From an uncultured archaeon (GTDB taxonomy: Archaea; Thermoproteota; Nitrososphaeria; Nitrososphaerales; Gagatemarchaeaceae): a stretch of 64,000 nt of DNA. Every line of letters begins with the position of its first letter. Position 1 is the first letter of the stretch. The stretch is taken from the NCBI GenBank assembly GCA_963799775.1, contig CAWCYD010000003.1:1856001-1920000 (forward strand), given 5' to 3'. The notes under the pieces are model-generated. The model saw only the letters and a program-made list of their open reading frames with translations, had not been told where the DNA came from and searched no databases. Below, piece after piece: positions 11,275 through 56,399 of the stretch. Position numbers and translations under genes: made by a program.

Positions 11275-11560
11275 ACTCCCAAGAAGAGTGTTCCATCAGC
11301 ACATCCTTTCTCCGCAAGGGGAGGGGAGAGCTGTGGAGAGCGGCGATAGAAGATCGCGTTGAAGGGGTGGGGGTGTACGCTGGAAGCCCGCAAGGGCGAC
11401 CAGTTCAGCCCGTCCACTACCTATAGCTCAACGTGTGAATGAAATGCCCCGGCGGAGGCGCAATGAACCCTTTATGCACGGCGAATGCCCTGCATTTTCA
11501 ACAAGCTAGCGAGAGCTTTCGCACGGAATAATAGGTGCCCCGGTTATTCCTGCATCGAAG

Positions 11561-12223
11561 TTGAAGGCAAAGACGAGCGCCTACGTAGTTGCCCAAGCTC
11601 TTGCCGTCGTCATCGTATTGGTGCTGATCTCCCTTCCCCTGGAGGCCCCGAATTCACATGAAGCTCCGACTTCCTCCACATCTAGCCAACAACTGACGTT
11701 AACTGCCTCCAGCTGCACTTCGACCTCTACCACGGTCGAGAGAGTGCTGCCGGTCAGTTCTGAAGCACAGCTGCTTTCTGTGGTAAACGCCACCTTCTCA
11801 GACCATCTCTTGCATTTCACTTTGAGGGACACCTTCGATGTCACTAATGACTTTGAGAACGGGGCGCAAATGGTCTGGGCCGGGAACACTGAGGGCTTTG
11901 GAGGAAATTACACTGGGCTGCGGTCCATCAACGAGGTCTACGAGGGATTCCTGGAGCCGACCACTGCTCTTTCGGTGATCAACGAGAGCTGGACTTTGGC
12001 GCCTATCGGGTCAGAATCGGTCGTGGTCTACTCGACTCTCGACTTCGAGGGGCACAACAACATTTGGGGAAGCTTTGACGCCCAAATCCTTGGAAGGGAC
12101 TACTATGTCGCCGCAAACGGATGGCAGATCTCCCAGGAGTCGTGGAACTTCACGAGGTTCGCCGTCCAGAACTCGCTCGAAGCTATGCCCTACGGCCCAG
12201 CTGGTGCCTCGTGTTACCAATGA
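11561..12223 (+). CDS. Membrane-anchored secreted protein, possible NTF2/SnoaL-like fold
   Basis: N-terminal hydrophobic anchor, S/T linker, VWAGNTEGFGGNY and WQISQESWNF shared with 21890-22534. Confidence 0.65.
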   Translation: MKAKTSAYVVAQALAVVIVLVLISLPLEAPNSHEAPTSSTSSQQLTLTASSCTSTSTTVERVLPVSSEAQLLSVVNATFSDHLLHFTLRDTFDVTNDFENGAQMVWAGNTEGFGGNYTGLRSINEVYEGFLEPTTALSVINESWTLAPIGSESVVVYSTLDFEGHNNIWGSFDAQILGRDYYVAANGWQISQESWNFTRFAVQNSLEAMPYGPAGASCYQ

Positions 12224-12381
12224 GTGTCACCGTACTAACTCGCAAGCGAATTGCCCCCCGGCGGAGGGGCGATGAATCCTATGATTCGCGAAACCCATCA
12301 TTTCTTCGCAATTCAGCGAAACGAGGGCATTTCAGGCGGTTACGTCAAGTCGTCTTCCCGTTCAATCATGGGCCGAGGAAT

Positions 12382-12933
12382 CTAAAGTTCATCTGCAGTT
12401 GACATAGCCCGATTGGTAGTCGTTTCTGTTGAATCTTGAGGATACAAGGGATAAGGGAAGTGTTCCACATCCTCCGTACTTACTACGGCAAAGTCGATCC
12501 TTAGCAATCTACCTTTGAATCCCAATTGTGTCGCAACAGGCGTGAGAACAGTGTCGCTAACCTGTAGTTCAGATTGTGAAGCGAGAGCAAATCTTAGCTT
12601 CAGTAATCTACCCTCTCCGGCGTTAAGGAAGACTGGCACGCTTCCTTCTGTTGGACTTCCTTCGGCTCTTGTAATCACATCTCCCACTAAAGGAACAGTT
12701 GCGGTGACCTTAGTTACCGATGTTCCTCGACCTCCTCTGTTCTTGGCATAGAACTCAAGGTAAACAGATCTTTGAATACGACCTGACGTGTCAGGCTTCT
12801 CTTCGTAGTACCCCCACTTTGGAGTAATGCGCAAGTCGGGCCTCTGCGATTGATGGCTATCATAGAGGGCATATAGCGAAATAACCAGAGCTGATATTGC
12901 TACAATCAACTCGGCAACAGAGATGATGTCCAT
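12382..12933 (-). CDS. Hypothetical membrane-anchored protein
   Basis: N-terminal TM helix; fills one inter-repeat interval. Confidence 0.6.
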   Translation of the reverse strand: MDIISVAELIVAISALVISLYALYDSHQSQRPDLRITPKWGYYEEKPDTSGRIQRSVYLEFYAKNRGGRGTSVTKVTATVPLVGDVITRAEGSPTEGSVPVFLNAGEGRLLKLRFALASQSELQVSDTVLTPVATQLGFKGRLLRIDFAVVSTEDVEHFPYPLYPQDSTETTTNRAMSTADEL

Positions 12934-13095
12934 AGCCGTGCGCCGGTTTGATTGAGTCAATTATCAGTTTCGTGTCGAGCGGGAGGCGCAATGAACCCAT
13001 ATGCATGGCAACAACTTGCCCATTTTATCGAGAGCTAGCGGAAGCTAGGACGTTCGGACAAATTCATTTATGGTTCGAGCCTTGCTTTCTCATCC

Positions 13096-14624: not shown

Positions 14625-15810
14625 CAGTATCTCCGAATGACATAGGGTCACCTCCGTCAGGTTGCCAATGGGATTAGGAATGTGAGGAGGAGGGAGACCT
14701 TGACCTCCAATGCGATGATATGCTCTTCATCGTCGCGTCCGTCCTCTCCATTGTCGTTGCGCTCTGAAGAGTTCAGGATGCACCATGCGTTGTATAGGCA
14801 TACTGCCACCGCGTAGTAGAGTAGCCTAACCGTGAAGCTCTTCGATTTCGTCCTCGGAAGGAAGATGTTGTGCTCTCTGTAGGCGGTCTCCACTCCCCAA
14901 CGGGTCTTGTAACGCTTCAGCAGGCGCTTCGGCCTGCACGACATGTTCGTGGCGAAGAGGTAGCTGATCTTCGTCTCCTCGTCGTCGACCCTGACGAGCT
15001 TGAACGGTCTGTCGCAAGGATAGGAGACAGATTGACCGTCCTTGAGGTCGATCCTCTTCGTCAGCCGGTTGGGCGTGAAATGGATTGCATACAGGTATCC
15101 GTTCTCCTGGAGCCAAGAGGGGAGCTCGAGCGATGAGAACCCTCCATCGAAGAGGAGATACCTAACCCTGATTCCCATGTTCCTTATCCGGTTGAGGGCG
15201 TCCTCGATGTAATCCAAGAGATACTCCCTGCTCTTGATGGGCGTCAGGACGATCGTGAGCCTCCTCCCATCGGCGAGGATGCTCGCGGTGAGGTACTGGT
15301 AAGCGTAGCAAGAGCCGGCCTTTGGCCTCGTCCCGTTGACCATGTCGGTCTCATTATCGCCATAAAACATCTGGTCGTGCCAATCAAACGCAATCGGGAC
15401 CGGTCTCTTCAGCAACCCCTTTCTCTTCAGCTCGCCTACCTGCTCCTCGAGGACGATGGAGACGACGCTCTGGAGCTCGTATCTCTCGATGCTCTTGAAG
15501 CGCATAAGCGCGGTGTCGGAGTTCGGTACCCCGGCTCCAAACTTATTGGAGACGTTGCTCATTCCTTCCGCGTAGGCATTGAGTACAGACGAGTTGACAA
15601 GGAGACGGATATAGTCCGCCTTCGTGTACAAGTAGCTGGGCTTCACCTCGAAGCACAGTAGCTGGGGCAGGCATCGCATCATGACGGTATCGAAGCCTCT
15701 GGCTAGATGATTGGAGATCATAGCTGAGGCTTCGGGGTGAAGACTCCCTACGCCCCAAAATCATAACTTGTTGAGCGACGGCTAAAATCCGCACTCATTC
15801 GGAGATACTG
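14625..15810 (-). mobile_element. ISH3-family (IS4 superfamily) insertion sequence, 1186 bp
   Basis: Perfect 16-bp terminal inverted repeat CAGTATCTCCGAATGA (14625-14640 / 15795-15810); TAAG target duplication (14621-14624 / 15811-15814). Confidence 0.92.
14657..15721 (-). CDS. DDE transposase (ISH3-like)
   Basis: IAFDWHDQMFYG, LLFDGGF, YKTRWGVETAYR. Confidence 0.92.
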   Translation of the reverse strand: MISNHLARGFDTVMMRCLPQLLCFEVKPSYLYTKADYIRLLVNSSVLNAYAEGMSNVSNKFGAGVPNSDTALMRFKSIERYELQSVVSIVLEEQVGELKRKGLLKRPVPIAFDWHDQMFYGDNETDMVNGTRPKAGSCYAYQYLTASILADGRRLTIVLTPIKSREYLLDYIEDALNRIRNMGIRVRYLLFDGGFSSLELPSWLQENGYLYAIHFTPNRLTKRIDLKDGQSVSYPCDRPFKLVRVDDEETKISYLFATNMSCRPKRLLKRYKTRWGVETAYREHNIFLPRTKSKSFTVRLLYYAVAVCLYNAWCILNSSERNDNGEDGRDDEEHIIALEVKVSLLLTFLIPLAT

Positions 15811-18065: not shown

Positions 18066-18157
18066 CGCTGGAAGCCTTTCGGGCGACCAGTTCAGCCCGT
18101 CCACTACCTATAGCTCAACGTGCGGATGAAATGCCCCGGCGGAGGCGCAACGAACCC
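18066..18157 (+). repeat. Long repeat copy (23S 3' end + BHB half)
   Basis: CGCTGGAAGCCTTTCGGGCGACCAGTTCAGCCCGTCCACTACCTATAGCTCAACGTG..GGCGCAACGAACCC. Confidence 0.95.
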
Positions 18158-18175
18158 AAGCAGGGCGAAACTATG

Positions 18176-18571
18176 TCAGTGAGCTTCTAGGATCGTCTGC
18201 TTGGCCCGTTCGTCGAAGGTCACAAGAAATCTTTCGAAGACGGCCCTTCTTCCGAGGAGACTGAGAGGCAGCCTGTGGCTCGCGGTGAACGCAACCTCAG
18301 CTTCAAACTCCTCGTTCCCTATCTTCAATCTGATTCTGTGGAGGTAGGCGTTTATCGTGCCGCCGATACCAGAAGGTCTGATCCGCTCGCCGCGGTCGAT
18401 GGTCAGTCCCAGGACTCTCCCAATCTGCCCGTCGAAGAGGCTTACGCTCGCGCCCGAGTCGACCAGCGCCTCCGAGGCCACCCACGGACCATCAGAGAGT
18501 CGCAACTCAAGTGGGATTATTGGAAAGTTGGAACCCCTAAAGGGCACGTATCCGAACTCGTATTTCGTCAA
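18176..18571 (-). CDS. Retropepsin-like (clan AA) aspartyl protease
   Basis: ALVDSGA, GIGG flap, LLGR. Confidence 0.85.
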   Translation of the reverse strand: MTKYEFGYVPFRGSNFPIIPLELRLSDGPWVASEALVDSGASVSLFDGQIGRVLGLTIDRGERIRPSGIGGTINAYLHRIRLKIGNEEFEAEVAFTASHRLPLSLLGRRAVFERFLVTFDERAKQTILEAH

Positions 18572-27470: not shown

Positions 27471-27866
27471 ATGGTGTGCCTAGACACTTCGGTGGTCGTC
27501 GCCATACTCCGAAAAGACCGAGCGGCGACTGAGAGGCTGAGGTCAGAGGTGGAAGGCGGGGGAACGTTCTCCACCACAGTGGTCACTCTGTGCGAGCTCT
27601 ACTCCGGCGCGTTTAGGGCCAGTGACCCGCAGAAAGAGGTGAAGAAAATACAAGAGTTGCTCACGAACCTGGAGGTCCTCGGGCTGGAAGAAGGTGCTGC
27701 GAGACGGTATGGGGAGCTGGTTAACGACGGGACTCTCAAGAGAGCGCCCATCGGAGACTTTGACCTGGTAATCGCCTCGATCGCCTTGGAGCAGGGAGAA
27801 AAACTGGTTACCCGCAATCTCAAGCATTTCAGCAGGGTCCCTGGACTGGTCACGGAGCAGTGGTGA
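27471..27866 (+). CDS. vapC: VapC PIN-domain toxin
   Basis: LDTS, DLVIASIA, LVTRNLKHF. Confidence 0.9.
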   Translation: MVCLDTSVVVAILRKDRAATERLRSEVEGGGTFSTTVVTLCELYSGAFRASDPQKEVKKIQELLTNLEVLGLEEGAARRYGELVNDGTLKRAPIGDFDLVIASIALEQGEKLVTRNLKHFSRVPGLVTEQW

Positions 27867-30054: not shown

Positions 30055-31185
30055 TCAAGGAACTTGTTCCAGAAAGCTGTTGTTGTTCTCTCCAATCATG
30101 ACCCGGCCTCCATCCTGATAGGGAACGACTATGAGGTTGGTGGCTGATTCCCCTGTGTAGCCAAACGTGTAGAGCGACGGATACGACTCAAGCTGGTTCG
30201 CTGAATCCATGTAGAGCAATGCCAGAGTCGAGTTCATCTCGAGGAACCTAGTCGTTTGTCCGCAACAGTACGCTGCCCAAACCAGATCAGAGTCATACGA
30301 TTCGATATTCCCTATCTGTTGACCCCACGGCCAGAGCGTAGGTTTCACGACTATTGATGCAGACGTGACGTTTCGGATTGGGATGTGGACAATGCCGAAT
30401 GTGTCGTTGTTAGCCGCAAACGTTCCGTTGCCGAACGGGTTGTCAGACATCCTGATCTCTATCCCGGCATTGTAGACGTCGACTGAAGTGGTGAGCCGCA
30501 CATCCAGTGGGAGCGAGTAGTTTGACGTAGAGCCAAGGAACGAACCGAAGGCATAAGTTGTCTTTCCGTTCAATTCTCCATTCCGACCGTTTCCGTACGA
30601 ATCCAGAGTGACGTTCGCATTACTCCCGGTCTCGTTGAAGATGAGGCCATCGAAGTCCCTGACCTCTTGTGTAGTTGTATTCGCGAAGGGCACCACGTTT
30701 TGCGCCCAGAACAACTCGCTCCCATGGGCCGTGGTAACGACCACGTTCACGTTCATTTGGAGGCTTGCGCATTGCGTACACGCCAATACCGAGTAGGTTG
30801 GAGCTATGGAGTAGTCCCAATTTGTAGAAGCTGAGAGCGCGCTGATATCGGCCTGCCCAACGACCTCTGTTGTGTTTATGGAATACGATTGTAGCGACCC
30901 TGAATAGTTGTAGACGCCATACGAGGCTATCCCAATGGGGGATGCTTCGGTCGGGCGATTGAGAAGGTATTCAAATTGTGAGCTGTCTAGAAATTGTCCC
31001 CAATCGAAAGCCTGGGAAGACCCGGTGGCAGTCGTCGGAGACGACGTAGAACTGGTCGGAGTTACAGCAGTCCTGGTCAACATACTTGATTCGAGAGAGA
31101 CGCCGATAAGAAGAGCAATCAAGCCTGCTACGACGGTAACCATGACCGCCGACCGAGAGACAGCGTGTCTTCGCTTCAAGATCAT
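30055..31185 (-). CDS. Thermopsin-like (A5) protease
   Basis: PIGIASYG, ASLQMNV, FWAQNV, FGYTGES; signal anchor. Confidence 0.75.
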   Translation of the reverse strand: MILKRRHAVSRSAVMVTVVAGLIALLIGVSLESSMLTRTAVTPTSSTSSPTTATGSSQAFDWGQFLDSSQFEYLLNRPTEASPIGIASYGVYNYSGSLQSYSINTTEVVGQADISALSASTNWDYSIAPTYSVLACTQCASLQMNVNVVVTTAHGSELFWAQNVVPFANTTTQEVRDFDGLIFNETGSNANVTLDSYGNGRNGELNGKTTYAFGSFLGSTSNYSLPLDVRLTTSVDVYNAGIEIRMSDNPFGNGTFAANNDTFGIVHIPIRNVTSASIVVKPTLWPWGQQIGNIESYDSDLVWAAYCCGQTTRFLEMNSTLALLYMDSANQLESYPSLYTFGYTGESATNLIVVPYQDGGRVMIGENNNSFLEQVP

Positions 31186-31304
31186 TATTGCAGGCCCAGG
31201 GACCAAGGCGAAGCCAGCATTTTAATCGAGAGTCTATGGATTACTGGGCCCCGGTGGAGGCGCAATGAACCCCATGCGCGGCAACTAAATCCCCAAATGC
31301 TAGG

Positions 31305-33125: not shown

Positions 33126-33524
33126 TCACTCGAACACGCGCTTTATCCCAGCGATTCTGTCGAAATCTTTGTCGTTTGAGTAGACCTCGGCGATCTTCTC
33201 TCTTCTCATGACGGCGAGAGTGAGAGCGTCAACGAAGTCCATGCTCATCTTTTCCGCCTCGGCAGAGGCCCTGGGATAGTCCCTCCATCTGTTGCTCACC
33301 TTCTTCATCTTGTTGTAGGAGTTTACGGCCGCGAGGAAGACGCCAGCCCCCTTCTTCCTGTCGTTGTACTCGAGCCAATCGACGACCTCCTGAATTACAG
33401 CTAGGCTCGTCATCGCCTCTTCGCCCTCCTCCACCCTCTTCAGGATGGCTCTGGACGTCTCAAAGTCTCGCTTGGGGCTCCCAATCAGCGTGTTGAGAAA
33501 CACGTTGGCATCGACGAACCTCAA
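33126..33524 (-). CDS. vapC: VapC PIN toxin
   Basis: FVDANVF, DFVDAL, YSNDKDFD. Confidence 0.9.
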   Translation of the reverse strand: MRFVDANVFLNTLIGSPKRDFETSRAILKRVEEGEEAMTSLAVIQEVVDWLEYNDRKKGAGVFLAAVNSYNKMKKVSNRWRDYPRASAEAEKMSMDFVDALTLAVMRREKIAEVYSNDKDFDRIAGIKRVFE

Positions 33525-37210: not shown

Positions 37211-38194
37211 CTAGAACCAGCCGACGCGCTTGAAATACAACACCATCAGGACGGCGGGGACGACCATCGCTAGGAATATGAGCGCCATTGACGTGTAAGG
37301 CCCGATGAACCCCGTCGGCCCTGTCACAGAGCCTCCAGGAAGGGGCACGTTCATTCCATAGATGGAGCTTATCACGGTCGCTGGAATTGTGAGGGTAAAG
37401 ATGATTGTCAGGATCGCGAGCACGGTGTTCGTTCGGTTGCTGCTGGTGACGAAGTCGGTGTCCTTGTATATCTCTACCATCTCCTTCATCTCTTCAATCG
37501 TCGCGGAGACCCTCCCGATCTTGTGGCGGATGTCGCTGAAGTAGATCGAAAGGTCTTCCGTGCTGAACTTCTGCGCCTTGACCACGTCGGGCAGATACAA
37601 TTGCAGGGGATACACGACCCTTCTTAGGATAGCAATCTGGCGGCGGGCGTCGTTTATCTCGCTGGCCGACGATTTCACCTCGTCGAAGACGATGGCCGCG
37701 ACATTGTCAAGACTGGCCTGCACGTCGTCCAAAATCGAGAAGAGGCTGTCGATTGACCTGTCGATTATCAGGTACGCCAGGTAGGCTGAGGACTGCATGA
37801 GCGAGTCCCGCTCCTTTTCGTCGTCTCTGCACGAATGGAAGAGAGCCGAGACTGTCTCGAAGCTGGACGGATGGATGGTCACCAGGAAATCCTTCCCCAG
37901 GAACATCGAGACCTGCCTGGAGACGATTTGTTGGCCTGCCTGGTCAGGGAATTGGAAGGAGATGAAGAGGTGATCTCCGTGGTCTTCCACCTTCGTCAGC
38001 GGTCTCGTCGACAGACAGTTTTCTAGGTCTAAGGGGTGAAAATGATAGACACGCGCGAGCATCGCCGTCTCGGTTGAGGTAGGGTCAAGGATGTCCATCC
38101 AAGTCATCCTCCCGTTGTCGACGGACGCGACCTTTCCGTTTTCGATGTCGCTTCCCGCTCCCGGTCCGGGGGAAGGGCTTGTCATAGGATTCAT
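37211..38194 (-). CDS. corA: CorA-family Mg2+/Co2+ transporter
   Basis: FHPLDLE, YGMNV motif, two C-terminal TM helices. Confidence 0.92.
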   Translation of the reverse strand: MNPMTSPSPGPGAGSDIENGKVASVDNGRMTWMDILDPTSTETAMLARVYHFHPLDLENCLSTRPLTKVEDHGDHLFISFQFPDQAGQQIVSRQVSMFLGKDFLVTIHPSSFETVSALFHSCRDDEKERDSLMQSSAYLAYLIIDRSIDSLFSILDDVQASLDNVAAIVFDEVKSSASEINDARRQIAILRRVVYPLQLYLPDVVKAQKFSTEDLSIYFSDIRHKIGRVSATIEEMKEMVEIYKDTDFVTSSNRTNTVLAILTIIFTLTIPATVISSIYGMNVPLPGGSVTGPTGFIGPYTSMALIFLAMVVPAVLMVLYFKRVGWF

Positions 38195-38346
38195 TGGCCA
38201 CCCTTCGGTATAATTGGCTTGTGAGTGAAGCTCCCGGCGGAGGCGCAATGAACCCTATGCCCGGCGATTGCCCGCAATTTCACGACAGACTCCCGGTTGT
38301 TTGTTTTATATCGAGATGGGGGAGCTAATACCGGCCTCTCACTTCC

Positions 38347-38978: not shown

Positions 38979-39458
38979 TCAAAGTATTCCATGAGCCGGT
39001 GTTTCAGGAGAAGGCGATGCCTGTTCAAGAATCGCCTTGAGGCGGAGCAGCGATTTCGCGGCCGCCCCACGCATCGACCGCGTCAACAGCGGCGTTGCGA
39101 CATTGGCCAGGGCGCCCGGTTCGCCCCAATTACGCAGCGTCATCCTTGTCCCCTTATCGCCATCCACGCTCTCCCAAGCGTAGGTCGTCACCCACCGCGT
39201 CCTCCCTTCCGGCGTCTGCATCACAAGGCGCTCGCCTGGGACGAACTCGGTGAAATCGTAAGCGTAGACGAGATTCCTTCCCAAGAATCGTGCGCGGAAC
39301 TCAACGCGCGATCCCATCCGCACAGGAGGCGGCGTCTTTAGCTCCGCCGACTTGATGTTCGTCTGCCACGAAGGCACATTCAGCGGGTCGGCGGCGTAGG
39401 CAGCGACCATGCCGCGAGGACGACTAATCACGATCTCACTGAGCACATCTACAACCAT
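38979..39458 (-). CDS. SRPBCC family protein
   Basis: I.RP...V..YAADP.N.P.W. Confidence 0.8.
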   Translation of the reverse strand: MVVDVLSEIVISRPRGMVAAYAADPLNVPSWQTNIKSAELKTPPPVRMGSRVEFRARFLGRNLVYAYDFTEFVPGERLVMQTPEGRTRWVTTYAWESVDGDKGTRMTLRNWGEPGALANVATPLLTRSMRGAAAKSLLRLKAILEQASPSPETPAHGIL

Positions 39459-39460
39459 GC

Positions 39461-39925
39461 TCACTTCGCCGTCTTCTGGCCCATGCCTTCTGAGCGCTTG
39501 TCCTTCTCGCCCGCGAGGATGCCCGTAAGGTTTCCGACGTAGAAGGCCCAGCCCTTGGAGTGCTGGTCCACCTCCGAACCCGGTCCTCCTTTGAACCCGC
39601 TGTGGACGAGCTTCAGCTCCGTGCCCGTGCCTCTCGGGGTGAGAGTCCACGTCACGAGCGTCTCCCCTTCGGGGAGGCTGAAGGTGTAGGCCACCTTGCG
39701 GCCGGGAACAAGCTCGCGGAAAACCCCTTCGCGGAGATGTTCCTCATCGTCGCGCCTCTCGAGCGCTTCGAACCAGAAGCGGATCTTACCACCGACGCGA
39801 ACGTCAGCCTCGACCCTCGACGGGAACCAGCGTTCCAGCATCCGCGCATCGGTGAGAGCCTGATAGACTCGCTCGGGCGGAGCGGATAGCACTCTTGTCA
39901 ACTCTACGCTGTTCTCGGATGCCAT
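39461..39925 (-). CDS. SRPBCC/AHSA1 domain protein
   Basis: APPERVYQALTD..L.RWF, GTELKLVH, GW. Confidence 0.85.
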   Translation of the reverse strand: MASENSVELTRVLSAPPERVYQALTDARMLERWFPSRVEADVRVGGKIRFWFEALERRDDEEHLREGVFRELVPGRKVAYTFSLPEGETLVTWTLTPRGTGTELKLVHSGFKGGPGSEVDQHSKGWAFYVGNLTGILAGEKDKRSEGMGQKTAK

Positions 39926-39931
39926 CAGCTG

Positions 39932-40276
39932 TCACCTGTCCGACCCTTCTGCCAGCAGCTCCTCGAGGGCGTCGAAGCCCTCCGTCCAAAACGCTCGGTA
40001 GCGGGCCATCCAAACACTCGCTTCGAGCATAGGCTTCGCCACAAGGCGCACATGCACCTCGCGCCCAGTCCTCTGCCGAGACACGAGCCCGGCTCGCTCA
40101 AGGACGTTCACATGCTTTGTTACGGCCGGGATCGAAACGTCGAACGGGTCCGCCAGCACGCTCATCGTCGCCTCGCTCTGCCGAAGTCGTTCTAGGATTG
40201 CCCTGCGCGTGGGGTCGGAAAGCGCTGCGAAACACGCATCGAGACGCCGAGATTGCTGAACCATCTGGTTATGCAT
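39932..40276 (-). CDS. ArsR-family transcriptional regulator
   Basis: FAALSDPTRRAIL..KH..VLERAGLV. Confidence 0.9.
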   Translation of the reverse strand: MHNQMVQQSRRLDACFAALSDPTRRAILERLRQSEATMSVLADPFDVSIPAVTKHVNVLERAGLVSRQRTGREVHVRLVAKPMLEASVWMARYRAFWTEGFDALEELLAEGSDR

Positions 40277-41767: not shown

Positions 41768-41861
41768 CTAGCCACTTGTTTGAACTCGTCCACTACCTAT
41801 ACCTCAACGTGCGAGTGAAATGCCCGGGCGGAGGCGCAATGAACCCTTATGCATGGCGACA

Positions 41862-44778: not shown

Positions 44779-45336
44779 TCAGTAGACCATGAGCCCTTTT
44801 TCTTCGAGCATCACGTGCAGGTTGTTCACGGACCTGTAGACGTCGGCCTCCCTCTTCGCTCCAGTGCAGACGAGCTTCCCAGAGGCGAAGAGGAGTATCA
44901 CGGTCTTGGGGTCGGCCATCCTGTGTATCAGGCCGGGGAACTGCTCGGGTTCGTACATTGACTTCGGCAGCGTCCTGGCCGCCTCCTCTAGGTGGACCTT
45001 CCCGCCGAGGTTCGCCGATGCGACCATGTTCTGTATCGTTATCTCCGCCTCGTTCTTGATGGAGATGCCGCCCTTCTTCAGCCTCCTGACGACCTCGTGC
45101 ACGGCCTCCCTTGACTGCTTCTCAGACTTCGCGCCGGTGCAGACCATCTTCCCCGAGCTGAAGATCAGGGTGGCCGTCTTCGGGCTTTTCAGTCTGAAGA
45201 CCAGCCCAGGGAACTGGTCGGGGTGGTACTCCACGTCGACGAACTTCTTGGTTATCTCGTTCAGGTCGACCCTCTGGTTTATCGAGGCAGAAGCGACGAC
45301 GTTCTCGATGCTGATTATCGCCTTTGTTTGGGGCAT
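44779..45336 (-). CDS. tbp: TATA-box binding protein
   Basis: Two repeats of NxVAS..YxPxQFPGL..LxFxSGKxVCTGAK. Confidence 0.97.
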   Translation of the reverse strand: MPQTKAIISIENVVASASINQRVDLNEITKKFVDVEYHPDQFPGLVFRLKSPKTATLIFSSGKMVCTGAKSEKQSREAVHEVVRRLKKGGISIKNEAEITIQNMVASANLGGKVHLEEAARTLPKSMYEPEQFPGLIHRMADPKTVILLFASGKLVCTGAKREADVYRSVNNLHVMLEEKGLMVY

Positions 45337-45765
45337 GCGCAGACGCGCAAGGCTCGGCACTATATATAGTATATATATCGAGCCTGGACGGTCTCGATGA
45401 CCTGTCGGTTTCATCTCTTGGGGCGGGAAAAGGCATAACTACGGCGTCCTCGTCTGGCTTCCGAGGTTGTCAGACAGCGCGTCAGAAGAAGAGAACCTGA
45501 GGAAGCTATACGACCAGGCGCGCGTGCAAGGAAACAAGAAGAAGAAAAAGGAATACAAGGAAAAGCTCGCCGAACTGAACCGACGCAAAAAGTCAGAGCA
45601 GCGAGAGAGCAACAGATCGAAAGGCTAGGTTTCCTGCGATAGCGGCGCCAAGAGATGCCCCAGGCGGAGGCGCGATGAATCCCTACGCCCGGTAGCTCCG
45701 CATCAACGATTCTTGCGGCCTTATAAGGCGCCGCGCCTACAGCCAGCTCGAAGGCCACACCATAC

Positions 45766-47449: not shown

Positions 47450-47744
47450 TGTCTGATGCCTATGTGCAATATGTGCATTCACATACTAATAAGGCTCTCG
47501 CGGCGACTTCGACCAGTTCACCCTGGTGCCTTACCCATTGCCGCTCGACTACCGATTGTTGAATCCCCCGGCGGAGGCACATTGGACCCTATGCAGGGCC
47601 AGAATGCTGACGCGTCGTTCTTGGTCGCCCGCGCCGGCTTGAGCAGCTTCGGATGTGGCCGTCGCTATCGCAAGAAATCCGTTCGGGGACCCTAAAGGCA
47701 GCGAATCGGCGGCTTAAATAGCGACACAAGGCTGGACCTACCCG

Positions 47745-48116
47745 ATGCGGACGCAAGCGCAAGAGGAGACGGAGGCAGAGGATTGGGCGCAGACCGAGGA
47801 ACGCCGCAGAAGGATTTACGAGGAGCTGTGGCACGCCGACGAGGAGCGGGTCAGAAGGCAGCGTGAGAGAGACCCCTACAATAATCGCCGAAGAGAGGAA
47901 AACGACGACCGTCGCAATCCGTTCGACCTAGGCGCCGTCAAAGAGATTCCAAGGGCAACCCAGGTCTTGGGCGTCAGGGTCGGCGCAACCGAGGTCGAGA
48001 TCAAGGCAGCTTACAAGAGGATGGCCATGGTGTGGCACCCGGACAGACCGGGGGGATCGGCAGAGAAGATGAAAGACCTCAACGAAGCGAAAGAGATCCT
48101 GCTGCAGGGGCTTTGA
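47745..48116 (+). CDS. J-domain protein
   Basis: [22 protein letters not shown]. Confidence 0.8.
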
Positions 48117-48209
48117 GCCTGTCCGAAACAAAGTGAATGTGACCGGGTTGTCGCGCGGTCTGTCGTCCATCGTGCGGATGAAATGCCGCCCGAGGCGCAA
48201 TGAACCCTT

Positions 48210-50271: not shown

Positions 50272-50366
50272 TGACGCATCCATCGAGTGCAGTCGAACGC
50301 CTAGGCGGAGGCGCAACGCTTTTTCTGCTATCGCATTTATAGGAAGGATTCACTTGATTTTGTATC

Positions 50367-51872: not shown

Positions 51873-52763
51873 GTGATGCTGACCATTACGTCGACCAGGA
51901 AGCTCAACTCGGGCACGGAGATACCCGCGCTCGGGCTCGGCGTGTTCCAGGCGCCGCCCGGCAGGGTCACCCAGGAGGCCGTGAAGTTCGCCCTGAAGAC
52001 GGGCTACCGGCACATCGACACGGCGAGGGTCTACGGGAACGAAGAGGACGTCGGCCGGGGGATCAGAGACAGCGGGGTGCCGCGCGAGCAGGTCTTCGTC
52101 ACCACGAAGCTCTGGAACGCCGACCAGGGCTACGACTCTGCCCTGTCCGCCTGCGAGGCGAGCCTGCGCCGGCTCGGGTTCAGCTACATCGACCTCTACC
52201 TGATTCACTGGCCGGTCCCGGGGCTCAGGGGCGAGTCCTGGAGGGCGCTCGTGGAGCTCCAGCGACGAGGCTCGTGCCGGGCCATAGGCGTGAGCAACTA
52301 CACGGTCAGGCACCTCGAAGAGCTATCCGACAGCTCGGATGTCACCCCCGCCGTCAACCAGGTCGAGTTCAACCCGTTCCTCTACCAGAAAGAGCTGCTC
52401 CGCTTCTGCAGCAGCAGGGGGATACAGCTCGAGGCCTACAGTCCACTGACCCGCGGGCACAAACTCGACCACCCCGTGGTCCTCGACGTCGCCAAGAGGC
52501 ACTCCAAGAGCCCCGCGCAGGTCATGATCCGGTGGGGCCTGCAGCACGAGCTCGTCGTGATACCAAAGTCGACCCGCCCCGAGAGGATAGAGGAGAACAG
52601 CCGGGTCTTTGACTTTGACCTCTCGCCGGCCGACATGACCAGTCTCGACTCTCTCAGCGAGGACCTGCACACGGTCTGGGACACCCACGGACGAACCCTA
52701 GGAACGCAGGGAGGCATGAGTGAAATGCCCAGGCGGAGGCGCAATGAACCTTATGCATGGTGA
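51873..52763 (+). CDS. Aldo/keto reductase
   Basis: GYRHIDTA.YGNE, DLYLIHWP, IGVSN, IPKS; C-terminus runs through a repeat. Confidence 0.93.
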   Translation: MMLTITSTRKLNSGTEIPALGLGVFQAPPGRVTQEAVKFALKTGYRHIDTARVYGNEEDVGRGIRDSGVPREQVFVTTKLWNADQGYDSALSACEASLRRLGFSYIDLYLIHWPVPGLRGESWRALVELQRRGSCRAIGVSNYTVRHLEELSDSSDVTPAVNQVEFNPFLYQKELLRFCSSRGIQLEAYSPLTRGHKLDHPVVLDVAKRHSKSPAQVMIRWGLQHELVVIPKSTRPERIEENSRVFDFDLSPADMTSLDSLSEDLHTVWDTHGRTLGTQGGMSEMPRRRRNEPYAW

Positions 52764-53454
52764 ATTCTGTACTGCTCTTATCCTTAAAGAACTAAAAGTG
52801 TCAGATGGGGACACTCGCCACATCGTGGACTCATCAAATCCGGCTGGAAGGATTGTCGACGACGCCTATAACCGGAAGAGAAGATCGGTTATTGCGAATA
52901 CCAAGGTTCTAGTCTTCGGACCGGGTCCAGGGAACGAAAATCCCGGATTTCTCGAACGAGAAGCAATAAAGGATACGCTAAAACAAGCAGGCTGCAGGGC
53001 TGATTACCCTGAATCAATTCTAATTGGGGGTAACGCAGTATTCGGTGAGAGCATACTAATCGGCGATTACAATCTTGTCTTCATTTTGTTGATGGGTCTA
53101 GGCTCATAGCATAGAATTCTCGCATTTCGTCCAGAGAGAGTTTGTAGCACAAAAGGTTAGATTGTTCCAAGAAAAGAAGTACAAGATGACCGAAAGTTTC
53201 CTTAACGAAGTGCTCGAGCCATTCTGCGCATTGTACAGACAATGCTATTATTTTGATGATCGGAATTCGTTAATCTCAGCTGCCAAACAGTGCTTCGAAG
53301 AATACGTCTCATTCGTAGTAATTATCGGTCTCCGTCCCTACTAACATCGCCGGGGAACTCAGTGGTTCACTGATCAAGTCAATAAATTTAAATATCAAGG
53401 CGAGTCCAAAATTGCATCTCCGCTGATTGAAATTTGGAAGTAAGTAACGAAGGC

Positions 53455-54894
53455 ATGGACTTCATAGAAGCCGAAAAAATCGCCGCAGTGATGCGGATGG
53501 CCAAACCCAACGTCACCGTAATAGGTGTCGGCGGGGCCGGAAGCAACATTGTCTCCTGGCTGAAAGAACGAGGGATCTCCGGAGGCAAACTCATCGCTGC
53601 TAACACAGACGCAGCACACTTGAGCATCACCAAGGCGGATCGCAGGATTCTCATGGGTGAGAAGCTCACGCACGGCCAGGGCGCCGGAGGGTACCCTCAG
53701 CGCGGTGCGGAAGCCACAAGGGAGTCAATCGGCGACTTTCAGAAGGAAACACAAAACAGCAACATCATCTTCCTTTGCGCAGGCCTCGGAGGAGGCACTG
53801 GAACGGGCGCAATCGAAGTCCTCTCCAAGGAACTAGCAAGGCAGGGCCGCCTAGTCATCGGTGTCGTGACTTTGCCGTTCTCGTCCGAGGCGTACAGGTA
53901 TGATAACGCGAAGAACGCTCTGAAGGTACTCCGCCAGTACTGTGACACCGTAGTAGCCATTGAGAACACCAAACTGTTCAAGGTTGTCGAAAACTTCCCT
54001 GAGCAAAACGATGGCAAAACCAAGTCGGAGGTTCCCAAGTTCAACTCCGAAGAGGCAAATCTTAGAATCAAGGCGCTGAACGACAAAACTAGGCGAGAAA
54101 TAATAGGAATATTATACGTCAATGGACCCACGTTTCACACTGAGATTGCGAAACGCGTTGGGCTCAAGCCAAACGAACTATCCTATCATCTCGGGTTGTT
54201 AGTTGATGCTGGATATCTACGACATGTTTACTCAGATAAGCGGATTGGGAAATCATTCTCGACATACTCCGTGACCGAATTAGCCATCGGGTTCTTGGAT
54301 TTCATTGGTGCCAAGGCAGAATTAGATTTTGCAATGAAAGCGCAACAGCCCTCCGTTCGCGACGAGCCTGATTCTCGTAGGACACACGCATTAGAAGTGC
54401 GGACGTTTGCGGTTGCAAACGAGTTGGCAGGTCAGTTCATCAAGGGGTTGACAGAGACCATAACCACGGCCAGTCTCATCAACATCGACTACGCGGACCT
54501 TAGGGCGATATGCGAGCGCAAGGGCCTAGCAAGTATCGGTGTTGGAGAGGGGAAGAGCTCCGACAGGGTCGAGGTCGCGATCAGGCGCGCTATCGCAGGA
54601 CAGCTGCTGGACATCAAGGACGTCACCAAGTCACAAGGGGTGCTGGTCCACGTGACAGGTAGCTCGGACCTAACACTGGAGGAGGTCACGAAGGCCGGCG
54701 AACTTGTAACCAAGTCGTTACCTCCGAACGTCAGGATTGTCTGGGGCGCACGCGTAGACCCGTCTCTGGAAGGCCGTGTCAAGTGCATGGTCATGCTCAC
54801 CGGCGTCGAGAGCGCTCTCCTCGCACAGCAAGAATACAACTTCTCGTTCGGCCCAATGAAGAGCGAAGCCAAATCAGGATGGCGGAAAAACTAG
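53455..54894 (+). CDS. ftsZ: FtsZ homolog with an internal winged-helix insertion
   Basis: GVGGAGSN, GAGG, GLGGGTGTG, INIDYADL, IVWGA; ~130-aa ArsR-like insert. Confidence 0.9.
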   Translation: MDFIEAEKIAAVMRMAKPNVTVIGVGGAGSNIVSWLKERGISGGKLIAANTDAAHLSITKADRRILMGEKLTHGQGAGGYPQRGAEATRESIGDFQKETQNSNIIFLCAGLGGGTGTGAIEVLSKELARQGRLVIGVVTLPFSSEAYRYDNAKNALKVLRQYCDTVVAIENTKLFKVVENFPEQNDGKTKSEVPKFNSEEANLRIKALNDKTRREIIGILYVNGPTFHTEIAKRVGLKPNELSYHLGLLVDAGYLRHVYSDKRIGKSFSTYSVTELAIGFLDFIGAKAELDFAMKAQQPSVRDEPDSRRTHALEVRTFAVANELAGQFIKGLTETITTASLINIDYADLRAICERKGLASIGVGEGKSSDRVEVAIRRAIAGQLLDIKDVTKSQGVLVHVTGSSDLTLEEVTKAGELVTKSLPPNVRIVWGARVDPSLEGRVKCMVMLTGVESALLAQQEYNFSFGPMKSEAKSGWRKN

Positions 54895-55078
54895 ACATGA
54901 CGGCGAACCATCTTCTCGTGATTGGCCACAACCTCTTCCGGCGACCAAAGCTCAACGTGCGAGTGAAATGCCCCGGCGGAGGCGCAATGAATCCTTTATC
55001 CATTGCAAACATCCTATTCATTAGGTGATTTGGTAATTCATCATTGTTATAAGGAATCAGAAGGGGAAAGCCCCTTCC

Positions 55079-55918
55079 TTGAGGTACCTGATGGTGCTAA
55101 GTTTACACCATGACCACTGGAACGAACCTAGAGGTGAAGCTCATTATACTATCCGAATGCTGAAGAGCGGACTTTCGCGTACGAACTTGGTTGAAAATAC
55201 CCCCACACTTTTCGTGCAAAGAAATTGGGACACGAACGCAGTAGAGGGTTGTTGGGAAGGTAAGGTTCACGATTTTCTTTTCAAGAAAGATGAAAAGGGC
55301 AGGGTCGCAGTGTGGTTTAGTTACGACTTGGACAGACAAGTTTCTCTTCCTGCAGAATACGCAAACTTCCCTGTCGGTTGGCATTGTATCGAGAATATCC
55401 CAGCACAACGGCACAAGTTCGACCCGCCTTTCGTAAGCGACTTGATTGACACTAATGATTGGCAGATATTCGAGACACATGTTTCATGGCTGCTGAAGTT
55501 ACTTGGAGTCCACAACCTATACGCATTTGACAGAGAGAATCAGCCTGGAAGGCCCGACGGGTTCTTCAAGTTAGGGCGTTCAGCCATCATTTACGACGCC
55601 ACGCTCAATGGTGACTTCGTCTCGGCAAAGAAGGACCAAGTCAACAATTACTGCAATCAATTCAAGGCAGGATACCTCGACTATGATGGTGGGACAGTAG
55701 ACGTTCGAGAATGTGAAAAGCAAGTCTGGATAGTGACCAAAGGCACTACCCATATCCTAAGGCGAGTTGATGACATCACGATTAAAGAAGTCAATGTTCA
55801 AGATCTTCTAGACCTCAATGAAAAACGAATATTGGAAAATCTTCATGAAGACCAATTGAGCTACGAACTTCGAAATTTGGGTCGTGTTGAGAGAACCGCC
55901 TACGCTCATCATATCTAG
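55079..55918 (+). CDS. Putative restriction-endonuclease-like protein
   Basis: FE..LL..LG..GRPDG..IYDA; AT-rich. Confidence 0.55.
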   Translation: MRYLMVLSLHHDHWNEPRGEAHYTIRMLKSGLSRTNLVENTPTLFVQRNWDTNAVEGCWEGKVHDFLFKKDEKGRVAVWFSYDLDRQVSLPAEYANFPVGWHCIENIPAQRHKFDPPFVSDLIDTNDWQIFETHVSWLLKLLGVHNLYAFDRENQPGRPDGFFKLGRSAIIYDATLNGDFVSAKKDQVNNYCNQFKAGYLDYDGGTVDVRECEKQVWIVTKGTTHILRRVDDITIKEVNVQDLLDLNEKRILENLHEDQLSYELRNLGRVERTAYAHHI

Positions 55919-56399
55919 CTCCACATGTCATTTGAATCCTCAACGGGAGTCGCAATGAACCCTAGTCTAGCTTGGACGCTTTGACAGTCACAATCAGTAG
56001 ATACTTCATTTTAATCCCAAAGGCAGTCGGCCTTTAAACGACGACGAAGTCCCGCTTGTTAGACGGCACCCTGACCTCTTTGGCGCAGGTAGCTTTGACC
56101 TCTATGTCTGGACCGCTCCCGACCAGACTAGGGGTGATTCCTTTAGGTGCGAGAGTCCAATTACTGTCAATCTGGACGATTTGTTGCGCTACAATAGCTT
56201 GAAGGACGCGGCTCAAGATGTTTCCTCGCAATCGGATATTGAGGAGACCAAGTCTCCACATCTCGTGGTGTAATGCATCTCATTGAGAATCTCGGCGGCT
56301 CTCGCAGCAGCCTCCGTGACCATTTTGTGGTCCAAGTTCATCTGGACATATCTCCCCAATCACCGAATGCCAATCGCCCTCGTCACACCAAGCCAGACC

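Follow-up and report, generated by a model that had tools for sequence, protein, structure and literature searches.

Sedentary chromosomal integrons (IntI/attI/attC) are reported to occur in Archaea too (bioRxiv 10.1101/2022.02.06.479319). Tandem integrations are known in Thaumarchaeota (PMC6563490), and in yeast WHO elements cluster at FBA1 (PMC7282813). Here we describe a cassette array located at positions 11417..55964 (+ strand) of a 64,000-nt stretch of DNA from a soil archaeon, hereafter the window, in which 51-54 same-strand repeat copies delimit ~50 cassettes. We found no description of such an array in the literature searched, and it looks like an undescribed way to collect accessory genes.

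Results

The window contains the sole rRNA operon of its genome (G000; G001-G021 are the other genomes compared). The 16S rRNA gene at 5747..7244 (+; Rfam RF01959, 1474 bits) is present in one copy genome-wide according to blastn, and the 23S rRNA gene at 7478..11442 (+; RF02540, 2416 bits) harbours a group I intron at 9517-9772 (+; RF00028, 77.5 bits). The 23S leader (7435..7487, +) provides the 5' strand of the processing stem, complementary to the core of the repeat and the bases flanking it; cofolding of the trailer (11433-11482) with this leader gave -68.1 kcal/mol with pairing over ~50 nt, and the genome has a single true 5' half of the stem. The best hit of the repeat profile (76.1 bits) is the native copy at 11417..11504 (+), which runs from the last ~25 nt of the 23S gene through the 3' strand of the processing stem to a hairpin/T-run box, its core at 11448-11470 lying just beyond the mature 23S end. 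The first-pass annotation of the window had taken the first copy for the real 23S 3' end and trailer, and the 23S end at 11442, inside this copy, bears it out. At the native junctions of six species GATGAAATGCCCCGGCGGAGGCGCAATGAACCCT is identical; the junctions are the same up to ...GAACCCT and diverge directly beyond, so that the conserved repeat core is the genus-invariant part of the native site.

A profile trained on 208 copies from seven genomes detected 51 copies in the window at E<=0.01 and 54 at E<=1. They occupy positions 11417 to 55964, lie on the + strand throughout, with none on the minus strand, and are spaced from 386 to 2230 nt (median 782 nt), in agreement with the ~54 direct + strand repeats, 0.3-2.2 kb apart, counted in the first-pass annotation. 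The 15-nt core GAGGCGCAATGAACC has 42 matches in the window at <=2 mismatches, again all on the + strand, where shuffles lead one to expect 0.17. The final copy of the window, identified by the profile search at 55916..55964 (+), is degenerate, and the next one follows 1.2 kb past the window end (G000:C3:1921243). Profile scores of the array copies reveal no gradient of repeat quality with distance from the 23S end, and insertion therefore need not take place at the first position.

The repeat consists of a near-invariant core of 22-25 nt, CCGGCGGAGGCGCAATGAACCC, which is the 3' strand of the 23S processing stem and, on direct reading of the sequence, non-palindromic. Per-column conservation of >=80% is confined to positions -7..+17 around the core (208 copies, seven genomes), and in 111/208 copies the core continues as ATGCATGGCGA, extending into the outer helix. 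About half of the copies are almost core alone; many share 50-150 nt with the native site. A tail of 30-77 nt of true 23S sequence is kept in ~10 array copies as judged by blastn, or in 13 members of repeat family D3 including the native one. An example of this long form is the copy at 18104..18176 (+), with ~65 nt of 23S tail, and others, assigned by the same blastn search and to the same family, lie at 25597, 27933, 29937, 33025, 33868, 34804, 36098, 38860, 41087, 41793, and 54944 (all +). Hence the earlier description of the repeats as rRNA-derived holds for the trailer/processing-stem strand, which is conserved, whereas mature 23S sequence is found in only ~10-13 copies. A full right arm is exemplified by the copy at 12982..13095 (+), where the core is followed by a hairpin/T-run, a second hairpin and a GTTCGGACAAA..TTTAT box ~25 nt ahead of the ATG at 13096. 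This box, present in 19/208 copies, is a putative BRE/TATA-like promoter for a leaderless cassette gene.

A cassette, measured from one core to the next, has a median length of ~0.8 kb and holds a single gene or a small operon. By a heuristic count, which corrects the first-pass annotation, the longest ORF is on the + strand in ~31/49 intervals and on the opposite strand in ~18/49. The cargo comprises PIN/VapB/MazE toxin-antitoxin genes, Fic, thermopsin, GNAT, CorA, regulators, secreted proteins and many ORFans, including S/T-rich ones with signal peptides, and ORF families are tiny (<=7 members among 1235 ORFs of eight arrays). On the + strand we identified a PIN-domain toxin (27471..27866; PF01850, E=6e-18), an aldo/keto reductase (51873..52763) common to G011, G017, and G018, an FtsZ/tubulin-family protein with an inserted winged-HTH (53434..54894; domain hits), and a DnaJ-domain protein (47574..48206; domain hit), whose cassette recurs in G011, G017, and G018 in differing contexts, the right homology boundary falling within the core. 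Cassettes on the minus strand encode a thermopsin-family secreted protease (30055..31206; PF05317, E=2e-36), a CorA Mg2+ transporter (37211..38248; PF01544, E=1e-51), a small operon of two SRPBCC proteins and an ArsR-type HTH regulator (38979..40276; domain hits), and a TATA-binding-protein paralogue (44779..45414; PF00352, E=9e-60) with 90.5% identity to a cassette of G017. Also on the minus strand, a two-gene toxin-antitoxin cassette (33126..33790; PIN and MazE/AbrB-type by domain hits) has core-to-core homologues at other array positions in G007 and G014, and cassette 4 contains a DDE transposase, that is, an IS (14657..15721; PF01609, E=1.5e-7).

In all five same-genus relatives whose fetched region includes the rRNA the array likewise begins at the 3' end of the 23S gene and follows the rRNA strand, with 40, 63, 19, 12, and 11 copies and a syntenic upstream flank; the 40-copy array belongs to G007, a single-contig genome. 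Repeat matches occur in 21/22 genomes of the genus, and no array was present in the three genomes that represent other families within the order. DNA homologues of 19/49 window cassettes were detected in the arrays of six relatives, in non-collinear order. Among the inter-genome HSPs (>=78% identity, >=250 nt, n=39), four run from core to core, starting at -5..-8 and ending at +14..+28 in both genomes, and eight further ones have one end at an equal core offset in both. Copy pairs similar on the left only diverge at +16..+19 in 40/46 cases and those similar on the right only at -5..-7 in 3/3, a mapping of crossovers whose resolution is limited to the invariant core and in which common 23S-tail ancestry alone accounts for part of the likeness among left-similar pairs.

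Genome-wide, our first profile gave 73 hits, 49 of them in the window array and the other 24 in small same-strand mini-arrays. In G000 mini-arrays lie directly downstream of two paralogous integrases (loci A and B) and differ exactly by between-core cassettes. By eye, locus A is preceded by a tRNA-like sequence and no adjacent tRNA was recognised at locus B; neither locus received a tRNA call from ARAGORN or Rfam. Integrases of this family adjoin tool-called tRNA genes in G007, G014, and G017; we infer that tRNA-integrated elements are vehicles of the cassettes. The expectation that copies be confined downstream of the 23S gene was thus wrong in detail, because mini-arrays sit on tRNA-integrated elements and elsewhere.

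None of the five PF00589 hits of the genome falls into the window, which upholds the first-pass statement that it lacks a tyrosine recombinase, and none was found inside the arrays of six genomes (fetched regions of roughly 300 kb in sum). G007 has only one tyrosine recombinase, of a tRNA-linked type, and G018 only one, of a different type. Serine recombinase, IS110 DEDD, SSV-type integrase, and Cas1 were each detected in one to four of the five genomes searched, never in all five, and the search for reverse transcriptases gave no hit; a co-occurring recombinase, suggested earlier as a check, was not recovered, as none of the searched classes tracks the arrays. With 55.5 bits the best integron-integrase score stayed far below the cut-off of 265. 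Nor is there an enrichment of RYYYAAC..GTTRRRY pairs (4 hits, corresponding to two loci each scored on both strands, versus 5.9 expected), so the reported lack of attC motifs stands. By membership the array fails as an integron, being without IntI, attC motifs and an in-array recombinase of the searched classes. Excised circles, a further proposed check, did not appear either: 0/80 core-bearing metagenome contigs have terminal overlaps.

Discussion

The array is real and not an artefact. We see an even chance that it is a chromosomal cassette array resembling a sedentary integron but assembled from other parts, with a putative enzyme acting in trans to exchange DNA within the core. Docking would take place at the DNA that encodes the 3' strand of the processing stem of the 23S pre-rRNA; the native copy is invariant across the genus because of rRNA processing and would therefore offer a stable address. 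Cassettes would often come with a trailer-like terminator and a promoter box of their own, some also with a left arm resembling the 23S tail; they would be gained, lost and reshuffled as DNA is broken and rejoined within the core only. Exchange would be enzyme-directed at the core, which may be a target of site-specific recombination or a stretch of short homology beside a targeted break. The catalyst, not encoded in the array, presumably acts in trans and would most likely come from mobile elements, on which mini-arrays of these cassettes are also present. Many copies have long tail and trailer arms, which would be needless in a purely site-specific mechanism; this counts against the explanation, as do the lack of a recombinase of the searched classes that tracks the arrays, the non-palindromic core, the limited resolution of the crossover mapping, the even repeat quality along the array and the lack of circles. 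The gene-capture platform at the rRNA 3' end/trailer that the first-pass annotation had suggested is supported, and the comparisons it named turned out favourably: gene order is not fixed, the shared 19/49 cassettes being shuffled core to core, the same architecture in 5/5 relatives including a single-contig genome speaks against a chimeric assembly, and the repeat is clustered and strand-uniform, with 49/73 hits in one array, rather than scattered like a REP/MITE.

A rather unlikely alternative is homing as in WHO elements, where a predicted PD-(D/E)XK endonuclease borne by a mobile element would cut the 23S trailer core and the break would be repaired by copying a donor cassette flanked with tail, core and trailer homology; each event would shift the older copy downstream, and cassettes lacking the nuclease would hitch-hike. 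The variable 23S-tail and trailer arms would then act as homology arms, and WHO elements offer a precedent, as the 3' end of FBA1 is replaced in each of their homing events (PMC7282813). As a lead only, we note a genus-restricted family, predicted from a structural model to be PD-(D/E)XK nucleases, that is present in 11/41 genomes, all of this genus (0/19 outside it). Its motifs are EEI..GPDSL..YFEFKWW, and Pfam and NCBIfam give no hit for it. The C-terminal domain as modelled (pLDDT 88) matches almost solely PD-(D/E)XK-type nucleases at probabilities up to 0.98 (AdnAB, MGME1, Cas4-family, Hjc, XisH, restriction enzymes), but the Foldseek E-values are weak throughout (>=3e-3, none <=0.001) and no TM-score exceeds 0.51. 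In G007 the candidate gene and the 23S gene are convergent, with ~65 nt between the end of the former and the core at the working 23S end; in G014, G015, and G021 a copy lies within the array, antisense to the repeats; and 16 nt separate the end of one G000 copy from a tRNA-Ala 3' end. The genes of G007 and G014 each share a 5.5-kb cassette with a P-loop ATPase (HerA/VirB4-like in G014) and, in G007, with a weakly HTH-like gene. However, the family was not found in 5/13 array-rich genomes (G001, G003, G009, G011, G017), the window array has neither copy nor remnant of it, and the core is intact on both sides of every cassette, so that a homing nuclease would go on cutting ~50 sites unless its site exceeds the core.

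Ordinary homologous recombination by a RadA-type swap-in, with the duplicated rRNA tail and trailer as portable homology and the selected native copy as the source of gene conversions that keep the core uniform, would dispense with a dedicated enzyme, in keeping with the finding that no recombinase of the searched classes co-occurs with the arrays. The 50-150 nt that many copies have in common with the native site fit as well, and a core that is the sole genus-invariant part of that site is expected under repeated conversion. We nevertheless regard this as unlikely, since breakpoints cluster at the edges of the 22-25 nt core instead of being spread along longer arms, the nearly core-only half of the copies offers very short homology for an efficient process, and free recombination between direct repeats should collapse the array, whereas 11-63 copies persist in six species. 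It is quite improbable that successive integrase-bearing plasmids or viruses piled up at the 23S end and decayed by deletion to one-gene remnants. The stable-RNA gene end duplicated at each boundary, as by tRNA-targeting elements, the plasmid-like 5.5-kb insert between cores in G007 and G014, and the known thaumarchaeal tandem integrations speak for such a pile-up; the arrays of six genomes, roughly 300 kb, are nevertheless free of integrase genes, the median unit is just 782 nt, species share intact core-to-core units instead of random remnants, and the main text of the survey of thaumarchaeal integrated elements uses 'rRNA' 0 times (PMC6563490). A function at the RNA level, in which the sole 23S leader of read-through transcripts would pair with any downstream core and create alternative bulge-helix-bulge sites for the splicing endonuclease, and hence for cassette processing or expression, would suit a repeat that is exactly the stem 3' strand, reaches the outer helix in 111/208 copies and lies on the rRNA strand throughout. 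With a single 5' half in the genome and the longest ORF opposed in ~18/49 intervals it is very improbable, and it cannot account for interspecies DNA reshuffling or for mini-arrays far from the rRNA. The probability of an assembly artefact or a dispersed REP/MITE-type repeat is close to negligible: assemblers can be misled by repeats and 24/73 copies lie outside the array, but these form same-strand mini-arrays, no minus-strand copies exist in the window and 5/5 relatives, one of them assembled in a single contig, have the same architecture.

Compared with described systems, the native copy corresponds to the 3' strand of an archaeal pre-rRNA processing stem with bulge-helix-bulge (PMC7714728, PMC7038931), but an ordinary stem lacks the ~50 extra 3' strands that here stand without 5' partner between protein genes; the available text of these studies, as examples of the processing literature, makes no mention of multiplied stem strands. 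With sedentary integrons the locus shares a long one-directional array of small, mostly one-gene cassettes bounded by recombination-site-like repeats, cargo rich in toxin-antitoxin genes and ORFans, cassettes common to relatives in differing order, and one 'first' site fixed at a chromosomal anchor. Unlike integrons, it has no IntI, attC inverted-repeat motifs or adjoining recombinase, its genes lie on both strands, some cassettes have their own promoter-like box, and its site is a 22-25 nt copy of an rRNA processing-stem strand, non-palindromic and in this also unlike classical tyrosine-recombinase core sites. Integrase-mediated tandem accretion at tRNA/tmRNA 3' ends, described for Thaumarchaeota (PMC6563490), similarly hits a stable-RNA gene at its 3' end, with one direct repeat of the gene end produced per insertion and older insertions pushed downstream. 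Here, in contrast, the target is an rRNA trailer, ~50 successive ~0.8-kb units are without integrases, and no gene end needs restoring because the exchange point lies past the mature RNA. From WHO elements, as described in the accessible text (PMC7282813), the array differs in that every WHO unit encodes an endonuclease or its pseudogene, while here almost none does and in the window array none; moreover, the repeated piece is mostly non-coding trailer, and the WHO proteins are intein-like whereas the candidate here is a predicted PD-(D/E)XK nuclease. Like WHO elements at FBA1, however, the cassettes cluster downstream of one essential gene whose 3' end is repeatedly duplicated, with no need for an integrase and, in G007, with a predicted nuclease gene beside the target (PMC7282813).

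A repeat array extends from the 23S rRNA 3' end

The source genome (G000, 2.47 Mb in three contigs, the window being C3:1856001-1920000) has a sole rRNA operon, with the 16S rRNA gene at 5747-7244 and the 23S rRNA gene at 7478-11442 of the window, and its G+C content of 59% fits the 54-62% given for Gagatemarchaeaceae in PMC10640624. A group I catalytic intron lies within the 23S gene (9517-9772; Rfam RF00028, 77.5 bits), and the Rfam scan of the window yielded no family beyond the rRNAs and this intron.

The first-pass annotation had described about 54 direct repeats, all on the + strand, running from the 23S 3' end. A 15-nt core string matched the window at 42 sites with ≤2 mismatches, every one on the + strand, compared with 0.17 expected, and a profile built from 208 copies gave 54 matches at E≤1 and 51 at E≤0.01, again all on the + strand and none outside 11417-55964. 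Number, strand and span of the repeats are thus confirmed. The copies start at 11417, 12235, 12982, 14063, 16162, 16586, 17304, 18104, 19605, 20568, 21356, 21760, 22537, 22923, 23536, 24938, 25597, 26173, 27146, 27933, 28680, 29546, 29937, 31236, 32265, 33025, 33868, 34257, 34446 (weak), 34804, 35578, 36098, 37069, 38215, 38860, 40313, 41087, 41793, 42711, 43488, 44224, 44686, 45652, 46202, 46763, 47560, 48159, 49447, 50282 (weak), 50933, 51768 (weak), 52714, 54944 and 55916, with a start-to-start spacing of 386-2230 nt (median 782 nt). The sequence of the native copy (11417-11504) bears out that the first repeat is the true 23S 3' end with its trailer. Scatter over both strands of the REP or MITE type, named at the outset as an alternative, was not found: 49 of the 73 copies in the genome lie in one array, and the remaining ones fall into nine small same-strand groups or singles.

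The core contains an in-frame ATG (..AAATGCCCCGGCGGAGGCGC.. reads MPRRRR..), seen at 41820-42800 of the window and in the arrays of relatives, and several listed ORFs of the source genome and of three relatives (G011, G017 and G018) begin at this ATG or read through it. Coincidence is one possible reason; the repeat might also provide start codons.

The repeat derives from the pre-23S processing stem

The trailer at 11433-11482 is complementary to the 23S leader at 7435-7487, and cofolding of the two resulted in one long interrupted helix of -68.1 kcal/mol. Only at the native copy do leader and trailer enclose the mature rRNA in a long helix, as in archaeal rRNA processing stems; this helix is the pre-23S processing stem. 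In archaea the pre-23S processing stem bears a bulge-helix-bulge site; the minimum free energy structure of the native stem has small internal loops and bulges in the middle of the core and no clean 3-4-3 bulge-helix-bulge motif.

Among the 208 copies, from seven genomes, conservation of at least 80% is confined to CCGGCGGAGGCGCAATGAACCC, positions -7 to +17 around the core string. To the left of this segment tGAAAtGCCCC is kept at 50-70%, and to the right 111 copies have a continuation like TATGCATGGCGA; rarer trailer modules are a second hairpin (13 copies) and a GTTCGGACAAA..TTTAT box (19 copies). By blastn, about ten array copies have 30-77 nt of true 23S sequence ahead of the core, and family D3 of the repeat comprises 13 copies including the native one. 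Six species have the same native-junction sequence through ...GATGAAATGCCCCGGCGGAGGCGCAATGAACCCT and differ directly after it, which makes the conserved repeat core equal to the part of the native site that is invariant in the genus. A further 5' half of the stem was not found in the source genome, where only the true 23S leader fits, and RNA circularisation of individual cassettes was rejected on these grounds.

Related arrays occupy the same site in relatives

The 126-nt native site was matched in 25 of 41 genomes (the source genome and 40 relatives), including 21 of the 22 same-genus genomes, and many of these have at least 21 matches each. We fetched array regions from six relatives, five of which include rRNA, and in all five the array begins at the 23S 3' end on the rRNA strand. 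These arrays comprise 40 copies over 59 kb in G007, a single-contig genome, 63 copies over 88 kb in G014, and 19, 12 and 11 copies in G018, G011 and G017, respectively; the 16S rRNAs of the five are 94-98% identical to that of the source genome. A chimeric assembly stitched through the repeat, which the first-pass annotation had considered, does not agree with this recurrence, the single-contig genome included. Three complete genomes representing other families of this order showed no trailer-derived repeats in the 20 kb past the 23S gene. Database contigs bearing the core are recorded as Nitrososphaerales/Thaumarchaeota MAGs, 'Candidatus Gagatemarchaeum' among them, and viral contigs gave no match to the exact core.

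The upstream flank is syntenic in relatives, with pyruvate:ferredoxin oxidoreductase and NTPase genes. In the window the TPP-binding subunit of the former (1454-3529, + strand) carries an intein with a LAGLIDADG domain; alignments to G007 and G014 skip 1515-2611, and the intein seems to be absent from both. G018 has a second array of eight copies far from its rRNA operon (G018:C3:362900-372400), which is headed by a 163-nt 23S 3' fragment and contains one cassette matching the first cassette of the window at 71% DNA identity; no recombinase-like gene was found upstream of it.

Cassettes appear to be exchanged at the core

Only 19 of 49 intervals of the source genome have a DNA homologue of at least 150 nt in the fetched arrays of the six relatives, and the shared cassettes are not collinear, with cassettes c8, c16, c26, c30, c42 and c46 corresponding to c8, c26, c16, c46, c42 and c30 of G007. 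The fixed gene order that would have spoken against a cassette array was accordingly not seen; the arrays consist of discrete units whose order and content differ between relatives, as in integrons.

We next consider the ends of homology. In a set of 39 inter-genome HSPs (≥78% identity, ≥250 nt), four are bounded alike in both genomes, from 5-8 nt ahead of one core to 14-28 nt inside the following one; three of these are G007/G014 pairs and one is a G011/G018 pair. Eight further HSPs have one end at an equal core offset in both genomes, and the remaining ones end within cassettes or beside cores missed by the profile. Repeat pairs that are similar on the left only diverge at +16 to +19 in 40 of 46 cases, and those similar on the right only diverge at -5 to -7 in all three. 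In the DnaJ cassette at 47.6-48.2 kb, which was checked by hand, homology with G011 and G018 crosses the 23S-tail-like arm and stops in the first bases of the core. Judging from these HSP ends and divergence points, exchange appears to fall inside the invariant core or at its borders, the exchange point being no finer than the core because the core does not vary.

Terminal overlaps of at least 20 nt, as expected of excised circles, were found in none of 80 core-bearing metagenome contigs, a weak test since assemblers trim overlaps. One DNA read run covered 24% of the words, as short contigs, and its repeat joints, with sides of 21-70 nt, may come from relatives or from cross-alignment of repeats; these joints do not serve as evidence of excision.

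The cargo is diverse and shares no common family

We scanned 50 array ORFs of the window against Pfam. Matches comprise three PIN toxins, VapB-type and MazE-type antitoxins, Fic/DOC, thermopsin, CorA, two SRPBCC proteins with an ArsR regulator, a methyltransferase, AsnC, a TATA-binding-protein (TBP) paralogue, GNAT, a DnaJ-domain protein, an aldo/keto reductase, an FtsZ-like protein with an inserted HTH and one IS transposase; the other scanned ORFs matched no Pfam family. Many of the latter open with a membrane anchor followed by Ser/Thr-rich stretches and are probably surface proteins. The ORFs at 48210-49256 and 55079-55918 are nuclease-like by eye, without Pfam support. In the FtsZ/tubulin-family cassette (53434-54894, + strand) a winged HTH (residues 217-263) is placed between the GTPase and C-terminal domains, and the TBP paralogue (44779-45414, - strand) is complete, forming a mobile cassette that is 90.5% identical to one of G017. 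Just beyond the array, an AIPR (abortive-infection-type) protein and a Schlafen-group-3-like helicase (58081-62186) look like a defence islet.

Clustering of 1235 ORFs from eight arrays gave a largest family of seven members and none that occurs in all arrays. Array G+C is 0.49-0.59, slightly below the 0.59 of the genome. By a heuristic count about 31 of 49 intervals have their longest ORF on the + strand, and a putative promoter, a BRE/TATA-like box after the core, is present in 19 of 208 copies; the integron scheme, in which cassettes lack promoters, share one orientation and follow a common promoter, was not found.

Copies outside the array include some on probable tRNA-linked elements

The expectation that copies would be confined downstream of the 23S gene did not hold. 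With the first profile 24 of the 73 matches in the source genome lie outside the array, always in same-strand groups separating single genes: on contig C3 at 122.6-126.2 kb, 373 kb, 1355-1362 kb, 1387.7 kb, 1608-1619 kb (8 copies), 1767-1769 kb, 1843 kb and 1921.2 kb, and on C2 at 172 kb, beside a 77-nt 23S-tail fragment. Two of the groups are located directly downstream of paralogous tyrosine integrases (69% identical) in integrated elements at G000:C3:120630-129130 and C3:1384430-1390660. Common to both elements are the integrase, which has a zinc ribbon at its C-terminus, a DnaJ-TM protein and a 2.9-kb right module starting at a core; they differ exactly by cassettes between repeat cores.

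The integrase gene of C3:120630-129130 follows a tRNA-like sequence, an intron-bearing tRNA by eye only; ARAGORN and Rfam called no tRNA at either locus, and repeats of tRNA tails that would mark an attR were not found for the tRNA-adjacent elements. More distant members of this integrase family, here called IntA-type, adjoin tool-called tRNA genes in G007, G014 and G017. Ten of the 22 same-genus genomes carry this integrase family, as do members of four other taxonomic families without arrays; it was not found in G018. Since it sits at tRNA genes, is patchy and occurs in array-less families, it is a conventional tRNA-targeting element integrase, and we rejected it as the array enzyme. The two loci are plausibly ordinary tRNA-targeting mobile elements that carry mini-arrays and serve as vehicles. 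ARAGORN called only 18 tRNA genes in the 2.47-Mb genome, several with odd anticodon loops, and many of its tRNAs probably carry non-canonical introns.

None of the recombinase classes searched tracks the arrays

As stated in the first-pass annotation, the window contains no tyrosine recombinase: PF00589 had no match in it, five matches elsewhere in the genome and none in the arrays of five relatives. None of these five recombinases reaches the cut-off for an integron integrase (best TIGR02249 score 55.5 bits, cut-off 265) or for XerA (151 bits for the XerA-like gene, cut-off 220). G007 and G018 have a single tyrosine recombinase (PF00589) each, of the tRNA-linked type in the former and of another type in the latter, so that no conserved host Xer recombinase was found with the arrays. 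The core, as read from its sequence, has no inverted-arm symmetry and thus does not resemble the dif-like sites of IMEX or pdif modules. The repeats also lack attC hairpin motifs, as had been noted: RYYYAAC ... GTTRRRY pairs numbered four at two loci (each counted on both strands) versus 5.9 expected in shuffles, and only one of the loci is near a repeat. With no IntI-grade integrase and no enrichment of attC motifs, integron membership fails on both defining parts, IntI and attC.

The suggested genome-wide search for a co-occurring integrase, XerA or reverse transcriptase came out negative in that none of them tracks the arrays. Serine recombinases, IS110, SSV-type integrases and Cas1 were rejected for the same reason. 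A 407-aa ORF upstream of 16S (3533-4756, - strand) has no Pfam match, and by eye its C-terminus resembles an HhH DNA glycosylase.

A predicted PD-(D/E)XK family is a candidate

The first large interval of G007 and G014, 5.5 kb in size, contains a P-loop ATPase (HerA/VirB4-like in G014), in G007 also a gene with weak winged-helix matches, and in both genomes a protein of 376-433 aa without Pfam or NCBIfam match. Conserved motifs of this family are EEI, GPDSL and YFEFKWW. Its C-terminal domain was modelled with a pLDDT of 88.1, and the best Foldseek matches were the AdnAB nuclease domain, MGME1, Cas4-family proteins, archaeal Hjc, XisH and restriction enzymes (probabilities up to 0.98, E-values of 3e-3 or weaker, TM-scores ≤0.51). 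Motifs and model point to a PD-(D/E)XK nuclease fold. A whole-protein fold search gave weak, mixed matches, the domain-only model being clearer, and a profile search of PDB sequences gave none; the N-terminal region is beta-rich.

The predicted nuclease family occurs in 11 of 41 genomes, all of this genus, and a search of 5.8 billion protein clusters returned only five other relatives. Its genes include G000:C3:1738869-1740053, G000:C3:1846813-1848528 and, in two fetched stretches, L019:617-1747 and L026:4356-5657; they sit at element ends beside tRNA-Ala and 23S rRNA 3' ends. The G007 gene is convergent with 23S and terminates about 65 nt away from the core of the working 23S end; in G014, G015 and G021 a copy lies within the array, antisense to the repeats. 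One copy of the source genome ends 16 nt from the tRNA-Ala 3' end and another is located 14 kb upstream of 16S, near two cores. WHO elements (homing elements at yeast FBA1) have beside the target gene an endonuclease gene whose product cleaves the empty site; the putative nuclease gene at the 23S end of G007 would be in such a place, and none was found in the array of the window.

Discussion

We give about an even chance to an integron-like platform that would exchange core-bounded cassettes and be targeted in trans by an enzyme. The docking site would be the invariant processing-stem DNA beside 23S, which the cell cannot alter, since maturation of its 23S rRNA depends on it. Cassettes would be core-to-core units from a genus-wide pool that travel on mobile elements, and a trans-acting enzyme would aim breakage and rejoining at the core. 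The most concrete variant, nuclease-initiated and homology-assisted homing of the WHO type, would account for the tail and trailer arms kept by many cassettes, but 5 of 13 array-rich genomes yielded no copy of the predicted nuclease, which is also absent from the array of the window, and we consider this variant unlikely.

Plain homologous recombination fits the lack of an enzyme, yet the sharp core boundaries and the persistence of about 50 direct repeats misfit it, making it a rather poor prospect. The repetition of an RNA gene 3' end, here the 23S end with its trailer, at each boundary is what island accretion leaves behind; the arrays, however, hold neither an integrase per unit nor a recurrent protein family, and integrase-driven accretion fails because of the missing integrases and the unit size, so a decayed pile-up of integrase elements is improbable. 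A role at the RNA level fits worse than the platform and is very improbable, and an artefact or REP, which likewise fits worse, is barely credible.

Returning to the platform reading, the locus might tentatively be regarded as an archaeal gene-capture system unrelated to integrons, with docking at a processing stem and a non-integrase enzyme acting in trans, possibly the putative PD-(D/E)XK family. The literature searched, in its main texts, held no description of rRNA-trailer cassette arrays, Table S2 of PMC6563490, on integration targets, being a place that could bear on rRNA targets; the accessible text of the Gagatemarchaeaceae paper (PMC10640624) has no occurrence of integrons, cassettes or 23S. 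If the mechanism is confirmed, it would constitute an rRNA-anchored route of horizontal gene acquisition in widespread soil archaea (non-ammonia-oxidising Nitrososphaerales), would explain part of the accessory genome of that lineage, and would suggest a new enzyme that targets DNA at a defined address of 22-25 nt.

In its behaviour the locus is of a known kind, a gene-cassette array. Integrons, the classic case of a platform dedicated to gene capture, rely on IntI and folded attC sites. Like them, the locus gathers dozens of small swappable cassettes at one address, with content differing between sister species; unlike them, it does so without IntI or folded attC sites.
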